From Escherichia coli (lineage in GTDB: Bacteria > Pseudomonadota > Gammaproteobacteria > Enterobacterales > Enterobacteriaceae): a stretch of DNA of 64,000 nt. Made by a program: the position numbers. Below, one piece after another: positions 35,501 through 41,500 of the stretch. The stretch lies in the NCBI RefSeq assembly GCF_013315695.1, contig NZ_CP054353.1; one strand, given 5' to 3'. How positions within the stretch are numbered: position 1 is the first letter of the stretch; every line of letters begins with the position of its first letter.

Positions 35501-38500
35501 CAGGTAAAGTGGTAGAGGCCATTCTCCGGCTGACTAACGACGCTCCTGAGTACCTGCCCGTCGGGTTTAATCACGTCTAACTTGATGGGTTGATCGGGCA
35601 ATGCTTTACCATCTGCATCACGCAATAAACCATTGAGGATGACTGTTTCACCCGGGCGATAAAGATCGCGCGGGCCAAACATGAAAAACTGTTTGCTATA
35701 GCCTGGCGCGCCAGCAATGTTAAATTCTGCTAAGTCCAGCGCCGGAAGTTTTAAATCGAGTAGCGTTGTCTGACCGTCTTTACGCGCCAGCAGTAATGCC
35801 GCGTTTTTATCATTTTCCAGCTGCACATGCCCCTGAGCATCACTGGTTGCCTGAGTCAGAGTCTGCCCTTTCTCATTTAATAAAGAGACTTCTATTCCTT
35901 GCTGGGCCGCGCCGTTTTCCAGACTTTGGGTAAAGATATCCAGACGATTGTGATAACGGTGAGCTGAAACGCCGATATCACTTAACGTAAACAGCGTCGC
36001 GGGATTACTGTAATCGTAACGTCCAGCCTGATTCATCACAGCCAGATACACGCCTGCCTGCTGAAGCGGTTTGATATCGCCCAGCGGCAGCAATAATTTT
36101 TCACGGGTGTTACGCGCAGGATTGAGATCAAACCGTCCAGTGTAGACCAGATCCGCCATCTGCAGCAGTTTGTCTGACTGCCAGTTCGCCAGCGAATTGC
36201 GGTATTCCCATTGGCTAATGAAAGCGGGCAGTGATTCTGGTTTCACACGGAAGAAGTTAACATCGACATTGTTAACGTTGAGCGCCATTACCGGCAGCCC
36301 TTCAATAACTTTACCAGGTAACAACGAACCACGGCTGGCAAAACCGACGCTGGGTTGGATATCACGGGTAGTTATAGTTTTTTCGTAATCTTTACTGAAG
36401 GTTGCGTTGTTGAGTGCTTTGACCTCCTTGCCAATAGTGACGATCAAATCACGTTTCGGTTCGAGGTGGCGTAAACGCAACTCTTTAAGATTATCTGACA
36501 GCTCCCAGGCACCATCCACTTTGCCGCTTTTCTTATCGACGACATGGATAACGCGTGAGAAATCCTGATCCGGATCGAGAGGAATGGAGAACGTCAGCAC
36601 CAGCGTGGCTGCGCCATCAAGTTGAACTTCAGAGAGATCCAGCAATGTCAGCGCCTTACCGGCACTCTGTTGGGCCAGTTTTTGTCGCTCCGGCGCGGAA
36701 AGTTTTGCTGAACTCACGTTTTCTGAAGAGGCCGCTTTAGTAACTTCAGAAGGCGCATCTTTTTTCACCGCTGTTGGCGCGTTATCGTTGTTGTCGCACC
36801 CTGCCAGCGCCAGCATTAGCATGCAGGCGGCTACGCGTAACTTTTTCATTTTTCATCCCTGCCACAATGGCCCGTTAGCAACGTCGAATAATTATTATGC
36901 GTGAGAATTTACGTTATGTAATTCAGTATCACGCCCATACAATCCGAATTTTAGTGAGAATTGTGGCTCAGACAGCCAAATCAGCCTCTTTTGCTTGTCG
37001 CTTTTCACTAAACATCCGACAATTTAGCCTAACCCCGGCAAAAATGGAGATGCCTATGTCCACGACATGGTTTGTAGGAGCCGACTGGCTCGCCGAACAT
37101 ATTGATGACCCGGAAATTCAGATTATCGATGCCCGCATGGCGTCGCCTGGACAGGAAGATCGTAACGTTGCTCAGGAGTATCTGAATGGACATATTCCCG
37201 GCGCAGTGTTTTTTGATATCGAAGCGCTTTCTGATCACACTTCCCCGCTTCCGCACATGCTGCCGCGCCCGGAAACGTTCGCCGTGGCGATGCGTGAATT
37301 AGGCGTTAACCAGGATAAGCACCTGATTATCTATGACGAAGGTAATCTTTTCTCAGCCCCACGAGCATGGTGGATGCTGCGCACCTTTGGTGTAGAGAAA
37401 GTGTCGATTCTGGGGGGTGGACTTGCAGGCTGGCAGCGCGATGATCTGCTGTTAGAAGAAGGTGCAGTAGAGCTGCCGGAAGGAGAGTTTAACGCCACGT
37501 TTAATCCTGAAGCCGTGGTGAAAGTCACCGATGTGTTATTGGCAAGCCATGAAAATACGGCGCAAATTATTGATGCCCGCCCGGCTGCACGTTTTAACGC
37601 AGAAGTTGATGAACCTCGCCCAGGTTTACGTCGCGGACATATTCCCGGTGCATTGAACGTTCCGTGGACGGAACTGGTGCGCGAAGGCGAACTAAAAACG
37701 ACCGATGAACTGGATGCGATATTTTTTGGTCGCGGCGTCAGCTATGACAAACCGATTATCGTCAGCTGCGGCTCTGGTGTAACGGCAGCCGTGGTTTTGT
37801 TGGCACTCGCGACACTTGATGTGCCAAACGTGAAACTGTACGACGGCGCATGGAGTGAATGGGGCGCACGAGCAGATTTACCGGTTGAGCCCGTAAAATA
37901 AGCTTTTTACAGGCAATAAAAAACCGCCGAATTTGGCGGTTTTTTATTGCTGGTCTGGTTCGCGGCCTTTCCAGCAGGTTGTATTACTGCAAGTGTATCT
38001 CGTCTACTCAATACTCGCTTTATGCATCAACGATGTCGGTGATGCTGCCAACTTACTGATTTAGTGTATGATGGTGTTTTTGAGGTGCTCCAGTGGCTTC
38101 TGTTTCTATCAGCTGTCCCTCCTGTTCAGCTACTGACGGGGTGGTGCGTAACGGCAAAAGCACCGCCGGACATCAGCGCTATCTCTGCTCTCACTGCCGT
38201 AAAACATGGCAACTGCAGTTCACTTACACCGCTTCTCAACCCGGTACGCACCAGAAAATCATTGATATGGCCATGAATGGCGTTGGATGCCGGGCAACAG
38301 CCCGCATTATGGGCGTTGGCCTCAACACGATTTTACGTCACTTAAAAAACTCAGGCCGCAGTCGGTAACCTCGCGCATACAGCCGGGCAGTGACGTCATC
38401 GTCTGCGCGGAAATGGACGAACAGTGGGGCTATGTCGGGGCTAAATCGCGCCAGCGCTGGCTGTTTTACGCGTATGACAGGCTCCGGAAGACGGTTGTTG

Positions 38501-41500
38501 CGCACGTATTCGGTGAACGCACTATGGCGACGCTGGGGCGTCTTATGAGCCTGCTGTCACCCTTTGACGTGGTGATATGGATGACGGATGGCTGGCCGCT
38601 GTATGAATCCCGCCTGAAGGGAAAGCTGCACGTAATCAGCAAGCGATATACGCAGCGAATTGAGCGGCATAACCTGAATCTGAGGCAGCACCTGGCACGG
38701 CTGGGACGGAAGTCGCTGTCGTTCTCAAAATCGGTGGAGCTGCATGACAAAGTCATCGGGCATTATCTGAACATAAAACACTATCAATAAGTTGGAGTCA
38801 TTACCAACGATGTCAAGTAGATAAAAAAGGATAGATTTTGAATTCATTTGGCTTATCAGTCCGAATTCAGACAAATATAAACAAATCCCGCTTAATATTA
38901 AAATATACTAACTGGTAAAAGATATTACTTAAACGTGTAATTTCACTTTCTTTAAACAACAAAAAACCGCCAAAATCAGGCGGTTATTTGTTGCTGGTTT
39001 GGTTCGCGGCCTTTCCAGCAGGTTCACTTGTGTTGCATGAACAACGCAGGTGCCTCACAGCAAAAGAATACTCGCTGTTAAGAAATTTTGTGTCAAGTAA
39101 AAAACGAGTAATTATTTTTCGGTTAGCGTATTATTGACACCGACCCTTTCCGCCGTCTCGCAAACGGGCGCTGGCTTTAGGAAAGGATGTTCCTTGGCCG
39201 TAAATGCAAGTGTATCTCGTCGCTTGCTATCGCGGCAATATCGCCAGTGGTGCTGTCGTGATGCGGTCTTCGCATGGACCGCACAATGAAGATACGGTGC
39301 TTTTGTATCGTACTTATTGTTTCTGGTGCGCTGTTAACCGAGGTAAATAATAACCGGAGTCTCTCCGGTAACAATTTATTGGTGGTTAACAACCTTCAGA
39401 ACAGCAGGTAAGCCCGAATGCCGCCCTTTGGGGCGGCATATTTTAGATTATCCGGTTCTGTTTAAAGTCACGCAAAAAACCACCCCAGCGACGTTCATAG
39501 AATGGCACAATATGTTCGGTAATAAAGTGGCTAATTCCTTTTTCCCCTTTTTTCACCTGACAAATATCGATGGGTTCATCGCCAGGTATTGTATCGGTCG
39601 CTACACTTCCCGCCGCCTGAATAATTTCTTCGATATCACCATCGGCTTCAATGCCAATAAGTAAATTAGGCTGTGCCTCTTCGTTCTCTTTAATTGAACA
39701 AATAAAAGCACGCTTCACCGGCTTAATAGTTTTAAATAAGGTGGTGAGTGAATCAATCATTTGTGCTGGTGGCTCTGCGACTTCCGATAATATCAGCGAT
39801 TCACCGCCCTCCAGTACTTCCTGGCTGCTCAGCGGATTTCCTTCTTCACCAATCAACAAACTGATTTCACGCGGCATAAATTCTTTACCGGTTGGCAGTT
39901 TGGCATTAAGGAAGAGCGTTTCGCCAAGGGTCATCTCAAACAATGTGCGAACGGGCATTACGACAAATGCCTGTTCGTCTTCAACCGCCTGTTGAAGTGC
40001 TTCTAACGAGGTGAAAAAAGGAATGACGCTGGTGCCGTCTTCTTTTTCCCAGTGCTGTAAATCAAGTGCGCTATCTTCAACCACAGCCTCGCCCTGCGCC
40101 GCCGTACCAGGCACCCAGACGGTGGATTCCAGTAGAGTACGGAAAAAGGCCGGGCGGTGCGCCGGTTCGGTTGCTGCTTTTTCCAGCAGGTCTTCAAGTT
40201 CGTTTTTTATTTCTGACATAAGAACCACAATTCATTCAACGTTCGGGGCACAAGTGCCTGATGCGCCACGCTTATCAGGCCTACAAGGGAGTCGCAATCT
40301 ATTGGATTTTCGCAATTTGTAGGCCAAATAAGACGTTTACGCCGTTAACAGATTAGCAATCGTGCGCACACCAAGTCCCGTAGCACCCGCAGACCACTGT
40401 TCAACCGGCGCTTTACGGTAAGTCGCCGAGCAGTCGATATGCAGCCAGCCTTGCTGATAGTTCTCAACAAAGTGCGACAGGAAGCCCGCCGCCGTGCTTG
40501 CACCTGCCGGATACGCCGCGCTTCCGGTATTGTTCAGTTCGGCAAAGTTAGACGGCAGCTGGCTGCGGTGGAACTCCGCCAGCGGCAGACGCCAGAACGG
40601 TTCATTCTCTTGTGAGGCACTCGCCAGCAAGCGAGCGGCAAGCGCATCGTCAAAACTGAACAGCGCGTGATAATCATTACCCAGCGCGGTTTTCGCCGCC
40701 CCGGTGAGGGTCGCCGCATCAATGATCAGTTCCGGTTTCTGCGCACTGGCATCAATCAGGCCATCGGCCAGCACCAGACGCCCTTCCGCATCGGTGTTCA
40801 TCACTTCAACTTTTTTACCGTTGCGATAGGTAATAATATCGCCCAGTTTGAACGCGTTGCCGCTGATCAGGTTATCCGCACAGCAGAGGAACAGCTTCAC
40901 GCGCTTGTTCAGTCCGCGCGTAATGGCAAACGCCAGCGCTCCGGTAACCGTTGCCGCGCCGCCCATGTCCGACTTCATCGAGTCCATAAATGCGGTCTGT
41001 TTGATGCTGTAGCCGCCGGAATCAAAGGTGATGCCTTTACCAACCAGGCACGCGTACACTGGCGCTTCTTTATCGCCAGTTGGGTTGTAATCCAGCGCCA
41101 GCAATACCGGGGAACGTTCTGAACCGCGCCCGACGGTGTGCAGCCCCATATAACCTTGATCACGCAGATCTTCACCTTTGGTGATCCGATAAGTCACACG
41201 ATCGCCTGCGACGTTGCTGATCAGATCAACAGCACGCTGTGCCAGTTGCGATGGCCCCAGCTCTTCCGCCGGTGCGTTAATGGTGTCACGCACCCAGTCG
41301 ATGATCATCAGGCGGTTATCCAGTTCCTGACGCTGGGCATCGTCCAGATCCGGCCACTCCACTTTACGTGTGCCTTTCGGAGCTTTGTAACCTTGCCAGA
41401 ATGCCCAGCAACGATCCGCATCCCAGCCTTCACCGCTTAGCTGAACATGTTTGATGCCCAGACCGTCAATCTTGCGCGCCGCACGCTGGATCAGCCCCAG

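Follow-up and report, generated by a model that had tools for sequence, protein, structure and literature searches.

An IS1 insertion in the predicted −35 box of a timR antitoxin gene of Escherichia coli

We analysed a window of 64,000 nucleotides from Escherichia coli (contig NZ_CP054353.1 of assembly GCF_013315695.1; the window is this whole stretch, and unqualified positions refer to it), in which a copy of the insertion sequence IS1 occupies the spacer between sseA and sseB. The sequence of this spacer identifies it as a two-module form of the known timPR (ryfA) type I toxin-antitoxin locus, with one timP mRNA on the plus strand and two TimR-type small RNA (sRNA) genes on the minus strand. 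IS1 leaves the predicted RNA body of the TimR gene distal to timP uncut and splits the predicted −35 box of its promoter. By its seed, this distal copy, TimR(D), is the only apparent cognate antitoxin for timP in this strain, and the proximal copy appears to be an orphan. We consider it probable, at roughly 0.6, that the split would sharply reduce TimR(D) transcription, that timP would be less repressed as a result, and that this state is tolerated.

The IS1 family is recognised by a length of about 768 bp and by imperfect terminal inverted repeats of about 23 bp. The element here is complete at 768 bp, and its terminal repeats match at 18 of 23 positions (left end GGTGATGCTGCCAACTTACTGAT versus the reverse complement of the right end GGTAATGACTCCAACTTATTGAT). 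It contains the open reading frames (ORFs) insA (38093-38368, 91 aa) and insB' (38287-38790), which are joined by a −1 frameshift at the A6C motif TTAAAAAAC (38342-38350), and for identical loci the RefSeq annotation reads IS1A family transposase with programmed frameshift. On both sides stands a perfect target duplication of 9 bp, AACGATGTC. The range 38029-38814, which an initial annotation of this DNA had given as IS1, comprises the element together with both duplications. Length and inverted repeats, reading frames and frameshift motif, and the duplication with its empty counterpart in relatives all place the element in IS1; it is an ordinary, common element of a known kind.

We rebuilt the pre-insertion site by removing 38038-38814, a check that the initial annotation had proposed, and searched for it in 5426 complete E. 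coli genomes. The reconstructed site was found identical at 468/468 positions in three genomes (NZ_CP146670.1, NZ_OZ546925.1 and NZ_OZ546911.1) and at 99.8% in a fourth, and these closest IS-free relatives retain the upstream copy of the repeated module described below, whose absence from them would have spoken against the initial annotation. The same IS1 junction is also present in NZ_LR898874.1 (MSB1_4I, from a rectal swab in Australia), which agrees with the window at every one of 6,211 nt, and in NZ_OZ547117.1 (AF3, from a blood culture in the UK), which differs by one base within IS1. Since relatives hold the exact empty site and two genomes share the junction, we conclude that the insertion in the sseA-sseB spacer is real, recent and clonally inherited. 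The genome has IS1 in at least 40 places and such repeats can mislead assemblers, but an assembler that had misplaced IS1 into the spacer would have had to create a perfect 9-bp duplication around an exact empty site, and to do so identically in two independently sequenced complete genomes, so that we regard the chance of an artefact as vanishingly small.

The identity of the locus was established by comparison with K-12, where RefSeq annotates in the same spacer timR (b4811), ryfA (b4440) and, inside ryfA, timP (b4812), with timR given as a 100-nt minus-strand non-coding RNA that starts 17 nt after sseA. In the window, the Rfam ryfA model (RF00126) is matched over its full length (1-296 of 296) and scores 313 bits, the gathering score being 80. 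The timP ORF is intact, encoding 41 aa (MKIRCFCIVLIVSGALLTEVNNNRSLSGNNLLVVNNLQNSR) of which 3 differ from K-12 TimP, and the SL2 element in timP's 5' untranslated region (5'UTR) is kept in the predicted fold. The ORF also fits the description of TimP as a protein of 38-41 aa with a hydrophobic N-terminal segment. In Salmonella, the 5' end of TimR stops translation by pairing with some 18 nt in the timP 5'UTR (PMC7667032), and binding of TimR to SL2 destabilises a pseudoknot that is needed for timP translation (PMC11228461, PMC13000454). The distal TimR of the window has the features expected of such an antitoxin, with a 17-nt perfect antisense run starting at its predicted +1 and a terminator at 37913-37950. 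Several other Rfam models that matched at the sseA terminator (rimP leader, AgrB, RNAI and Leu leader) were rejected, as their scores lie below gathering and reflect the hairpin; the AgrB match (37915-37996, minus strand) reached 28.8 bits where gathering requires 40, and is mostly terminator.

The initial annotation had described two copies of a 65-bp module and a 17-bp motif, with IS1 lying between the module copies at 128 bp 3' of the sseA stop codon (which ends at 37901), and the coordinates confirm this placement, 128 bp being the distance to the start of the left target duplication. The module copies, at 37918-37980 and 38962-39024, are 63 nt long with 84% identity, and their homology continues upstream with a 1-nt indel. 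Folding suggests that on the minus strand each of them is the conserved 3' hairpin and terminator of a TimR-type sRNA, whose full anatomy would consist of a TTGACA-N17-GAGTAT promoter, a 5' seed beginning at +1, and the common 3' hairpin and terminator. The distal TimR is predicted to fold in just this way, with a free 5' seed followed by the conserved hairpin and the terminator (z = −3.85). The 17-nt motif is repeated exactly at 37988-38004 and 39205-39221, and the first of these, previously regarded as a truncated copy, is instead the complete 5' seed of distal TimR, antisense to timP SL2. IS1 does not lie directly next to this motif, the gap being 33 nt. What had been called a putative sRNA pair can thus be read as two sibling sRNA genes of a type already known, the TimR antitoxins of timPR/ryfA, and the two are not equivalent.

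Placing the promoter of distal TimR depends on where its transcript starts. A consensus promoter scan demands at least 4/6 matches in the −10 box, and we therefore used the annotated K-12 timR 5' end, which lies 7 nt downstream of TTGACA-N17-GAGTAT, together with a regular-expression search of the window and nine related loci. The same promoter stands before 17 of 17 uninterrupted TimR copies in these 10 loci, across five unlike 17-nt spacer sequences, and when +1 is placed 7 nt past the −10 box, as in K-12, it coincides with the first base of the antisense seed in each of these copies. The IS1 breakpoint, between 38037 and 38038, falls inside the −35 hexamer of distal timR (TT/GACA), so that the TimR-side promoter now reads CCGACA (38039-38034)-N17-GAGTAT (38016-38011). 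CCGACA was seen only in the window and the two other IS1-bearing genomes, and the IS-free twin has TTGACA. The −10 hexamer, GAGTAT, matches the consensus at 3/6 positions and is not extended. A sigma-70 promoter with a weak −10 should lean heavily on its −35 box, of which the first three positions are the most conserved. Within 130 nt upstream of distal timR, the post-insertion sequence contains no replacement promoter scoring at least 8/12. The earlier suggestion that IS1 separates, and may inactivate, one of the sRNA siblings therefore stands as regards separation, and inactivation is plausible by way of the promoter, with the RNA body left whole.

Another way to view these data is that the insertion is functionally neutral, with adequate amounts of TimR(D) still made from the residual CCGACA-17-GAGTAT, from a hybrid promoter that uses the TTGGCA of the IS1 left inverted repeat, or by read-out from IS1. 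Four of six −35 positions and the entire −10 box do remain, and IS1 ends carry an outward −35-like box that can form hybrid promoters when a −10 is suitably spaced (PMC8764528 and PMC9330008, citing Prentki 1986). Here, however, TTGGCA lies 8 nt from the IS1 tip and 29 nt from the native −10, which is too far, and the hexamers at 17-18 nt match at only 2/6 positions, so that we rejected a hybrid promoter as a candidate. Read-out fares no better, as a consensus scan of the minus strand within IS1 found no promoter, and a hairpin resembling a terminator (38178-38164, minus strand) would block it. Two isolates, an Australian and a UK one that are 1 nt apart, have stably inherited the allele, which hence is not strongly harmful, but stable inheritance is equally expected if loss of TimR is tolerated (PMC7667032, PMC13188913). 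Taken together, we judge a neutral insertion to be rather unlikely.

The consequence of losing TimR(D) depends on whether its sibling can replace it. The seed of distal TimR(D) pairs with timP SL2 contiguously at 17/17 nt, while the longest run for the proximal copy, TimR(A'), is 6-7 nt with G-U pairs counted. For the 5' 40 nt of each sRNA, the predicted duplex with timP has an energy of −37.3 kcal/mol for the distal copy, against −23.8 +/- 2.9 for shuffled controls, and of −29.2 kcal/mol for the proximal copy, against −27.9 +/- 2.8, which is no better than shuffled. These 40-nt comparisons and the run lengths were used in place of RNAduplex on the full-length RNAs, which gave −62 to −64 kcal/mol for both copies and was uninformative. 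Across eight haplotypes, one TimR per timP has an uninterrupted antisense run of 15-19 nt, and the other copies have 5-11 nt. In an alignment of seven haplotypes, timP SL2 varies in step with the TimR seed, giving at least four types, namely A (K-12 and phylogroup B2), B (E2855, CUVET), C (O157:H7) and D (this strain), with the rest of ryfA nearly invariant. We assign the cognate role to distal TimR because its seed alone matches the SL2 of this strain's timP.

It follows that the siblings would not be redundant in the sense of having one target-recognition sequence between them: they have backbone and promoter in common, and by eye their seeds differ at 6 of 16 aligned positions. In Shigella dysenteriae a difference of 5 nt suffices, since RyfB1 acts on RyfA1 and not on RyfA2, which has an unlike 5-nt variable region (PMC5333039), and in Salmonella mutations in the TimR seed abolish rescue (PMC7667032). 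One could still suppose that TimR(D) is lost without effect because the proximal TimR, which adjoins timP and has an intact consensus promoter, the common 3' module and a terminator, cross-represses timP as a redundant sibling. Given its divergent seed, its short run against SL2 and a duplex energy equal to that of shuffled controls, we find such compensation quite improbable.

The "crossed" layout, with the distal copy as the cognate TimR, is found in K-12 as in this strain. At about 1280-1413 of the extracted K-12 MG1655 locus there is a second, unannotated TimR-type gene beside ryfA, with an intact TTGACA-17-GAGTAT and a type-B seed. This proximal gene appears to be non-cognate, having an 11-nt run compared with 19 nt for the annotated distal timR.

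We therefore favour, as the most probable course, a recent IS1 transposition with 9-bp duplication into the −35 hexamer of distal timR, after which the loss of two T's from this hexamer, combined with the weak −10, would make TimR(D) transcription fall sharply. The orphan proximal paralog would fail to compensate, and the timP mRNA would be less repressed, so that some TimP may be made, in what we expect to be a mild de-repression. This reduced-TimR state would be tolerated, since the published timR deletions in Salmonella and in avian pathogenic E. coli (APEC) grow normally: in Salmonella, deletion makes TimP detectable and raises Cpx stress slightly (PMC7667032), and in APEC the phenotype is minimal (PMC13188913). 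That isolates from two continents stably inherit the allele fits a tolerated loss of TimR.

Several points weigh against this account. The consensus scan missed the TimR promoter even in the IS-free locus, its −10 matching at only 3/6, and the start site of TimR(D) is extrapolated from the annotated K-12 homolog. What is left of the promoter, CCGACA-17-GAGTAT, still matches at 4/6 and 3/6 positions and may fire at a low level. The outward TTGGCA near the IS1 tip might also support an unusual start, although the hexamers at the right distance (GATGCA and ATGCAT) are poor. Finally, whether E. coli makes TimP at all is debated (PMC13188913). TimP toxicity on overexpression and translational repression by TimR have been shown for Salmonella only (PMC7667032, PMC11228461).

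A further possibility is that the insertion matters through a different RNA, with the relevant target being a plus-strand IS128 RNA that IS1, ending at 38805, would sever from its promoter, the cut lying 10 bp ahead of the Rfam match. The IS128 model (RF00125, positions 1-209) does match here, scoring 166.4 bits where gathering requires 80, and has a gap of about 30 nt near the 5' end that corresponds to a relic promoter and ryfA stub in K-12. In K-12, IS128 (about 1100-1320 of the extracted locus) opens with a relic timP promoter, after which come the initial ~24 nt of ryfA, fused to AT-rich DNA (about 30% G+C) ending at the terminator that it has in common with proximal TimR. IS128 is thus probably the wreck of a second, decayed timPR module. 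The window haplotype and its IS-free twins are without 53 nt of the K-12 IS128 5' part, including this promoter, and an effect of IS1 through IS128 is unlikely because the promoter was gone before IS1 arrived. Moreover, IS128 has no known function and is unannotated in the current K-12 RefSeq record, and a search of the literature library for IS128 together with sseA found nothing. As an explanation of what the insertion does, we hold it to be highly improbable. IS128 reportedly originated in a computational screen by Chen et al. in 2002.

To place the allele in its population, we counted the TimR(D) gene in the same 5426 genomes. It was found in 394, with the insertion site intact in 392 and split in 2, the latter being counted by separate searches as the empty-site search could not join halves so distant from each other. 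The IS1 allele is therefore rare among TimR(D) carriers (2/394). The type-D timP 5'UTR was found in no more than about 39 genomes, of which 17 match at 99% or above and 22 at 95-99%. Because timP(D) is present in so few genomes compared with TimR(D), TimR(D) would itself be an orphan in most of the genomes that carry it, and the same disparity implies that modules have probably been shuffled between haplotypes. The two-module spacer occurs in about 2,070 of 5,425 genomes; the module duplication is polymorphic within E. coli, since the rest, about 3,350, have one module.

The window haplotype, where TimR(D) is the cognate copy, is rare. Among its best 40 relatives an IS200 is present in 30 and a tandem duplication in 1, while 4 are free of any interruption; the figure of 30 applies to these 40 relatives only, the 105-nt query being non-discriminating in that IS200 loci still cover 82% of it. 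The IS200 parts the body of TimR(D) from its terminator. It is 713 bp long, at about 1549-2261 of the locus extracted from NZ_CP023386.1 and likewise in TimR(D) of 29 other genomes, and its end on the TimR strand has a hairpin, CCTCCGGCATAGCCGGAGG, followed by TTTTT, which could serve as a replacement terminator. One might view timPR as a recombining system with several specificity alleles, in which two independent mobile-element hits on the cognate TimR(D), by IS1 and by IS200, could reflect selection to loosen TimP/RyfA control. Two such events are too few to argue selection, and we regard this as a distinctly unlikely suggestion.

The tandem duplication belongs to NZ_CP134805.1 (E7-1N7), in which positions 800-2243 of the extracted locus hold tandem timPR modules with a partial sseB pseudogene between them. 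This locus has three TimR copies (D, A' and B) and two timP (types D and B), with one predicted cognate TimR per timP, an arrangement that resembles ryfA1/ryfA2 of S. dysenteriae.

The closest known counterpart of the window's locus is timP/TimR itself, as described in Salmonella SL1344 and annotated in K-12 (b4811/b4812/b4440). It has the same position between sseA and sseB, a full-length ryfA, a 41-aa TimP ORF, and a divergent sRNA of about 90-100 nt with an intrinsic terminator, whose 5' end is antisense to SL2 over 17-19 nt (PMC7667032). The window differs in that about 1.2 kb now separates timP from the cognate TimR, which stands behind an orphan paralog (the distance was about 0.4 kb before IS1), that the seed of this TimR is of type D and not K-12's, and that its −35 is split by IS1. 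RyfB1/RyfA1 and RyfB2/RyfA2 of S. dysenteriae are similar in having two divergent sRNAs of about 100 nt with a common backbone in tandem modules, which are unlike where they pair with the RyfA "variable region" and regulate in a cognate-specific way (PMC5333039). The window, in contrast, combines two TimR/RyfB-type genes with one ryfA/timP, the second toxin being replaced by the AT-rich IS128 segment. The other divergently encoded type I pairs, tisB/istR-1, shoB/ohsC, zor/orz and dinQ/agrB, also encode an antitoxin sRNA beside the toxin and use short pairing in the 5'UTR (PMC7667032), whereas timP needs no mRNA processing and has a pseudoknot switch (PMC11228461).

IS1 insertions within promoter regions have precedents, in work by Prentki et al. 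1986 (as cited in PMC9330008) and at afaA, osmB and ugd in ST131 (PMC8764528), and in these the spacing between the −35-like box and the −10 decides the outcome. In the present case, by contrast, the 29-nt spacer is unfit for a hybrid, lowered expression is expected, and the target is an antitoxin sRNA and not a protein gene. The IS1-split timR is accordingly a rare natural allele of a known toxin-antitoxin locus and not a new kind of system; as a strain-level event, a common insertion sequence in a known toxin-antitoxin locus will not surprise a specialist. Its value lies in the comparison of MSB1_4I and AF3, with IS1 in the −35 box, with MS 21-1, whose empty site is identical. These strains offer a near-isogenic natural test of promoter loss at what appears to be the only cognate TimR, and the orphan paralog supplies a built-in control for cross-talk. 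Two observations matter both for annotation and for planning timR knockouts in E. coli, namely that the annotated K-12 timR is the distal of two copies, and that the legacy Rfam family IS128 is probably what is left of a second timPR.

Coordinates of the features in and around the sseA-sseB spacer are collected in the table.

Table. Features of the sseA-sseB spacer and its flanks, in window coordinates
Feature	Position	Strand	Basis
sseA (3-mercaptopyruvate sulfurtransferase), upstream flank	37056-37901	+	ORF and RefSeq annotation of identical locus
Bidirectional terminator hairpin of sseA (+) and distal TimR (−)	37913-37950	.	Inverted repeat, 19-nt arms, 95% complementary; terminal hairpin of TimR fold
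Distal TimR, seed type D, predicted 87-nt antitoxin sRNA; 3' two-thirds are the module	37918-38004	−	Positional homolog of K-12 timR b4811
TimR(D) seed GACGAGAUACACUUGCA, the 17-bp motif	37988-38004	−	Exact 17-nt repeat; 17-nt antisense run to SL2
−10 hexamer GAGTAT of distal timR, intact	38011-38016	−	17/17 uninterrupted copies
Left target-site duplication AACGATGTC	38029-38037	.	Direct repeat
Residual −35 CCGACA (GACA from left duplication, CC from tip of IS1 left inverted repeat)	38034-38039	−	Comparison with IS-free twin
IS1 (IS1A type) with insA, insB' and A6C frameshift site	38038-38805	+	Ends, ORFs, annotation of identical loci
Right target-site duplication AACGATGTC	38806-38814	.	Direct repeat
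Original −35 TTGACA, displaced 777 bp from its −10 and facing the IS1 right inverted repeat	38811-38816	−	Comparison before and after insertion
IS128-like AT-rich segment (RF00125)	38825-39003	+	Rfam 166 bits; K-12 alignment
Proximal TimR paralog, seed A-like (A') GCUGUGAGGCACCUGCG	38961-39061	−	Module copy; promoter TTGACA (39096-39091)-N17-GAGTAT (39073-39068)
Bidirectional terminator of IS128 segment (+) and proximal TimR (−)	38965-38985	.	Terminator-like on both strands
ryfA / timP mRNA	39140-39444	+	Rfam RF00126, 313 bits, full length
TimR(D) binding site in timP 5'UTR SL2, predicted	39205-39221	+	Exact repeat, Rfam, fold, antisense run; SL2 role from PMC11228461, PMC13000454
timP coding sequence, 41 aa MKIRCFCIVLIVSGALLTEVNNNRSLSGNNLLVVNNLQNSR	39286-39411	+	Translation; annotated timP (WP_004974226.1) in identical loci
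sseB, other flank of spacer	from 39443	−	ORF

The window contains a second IS1, at 58296-59063 on the minus strand, which is 100% identical to the first and has a 9-bp duplication of its own, TATCTTGCA. It lies between an hcaD-like ORF (57009-58211) and a yphA-like ORF (59079-59507), 15 bp upstream of the latter.

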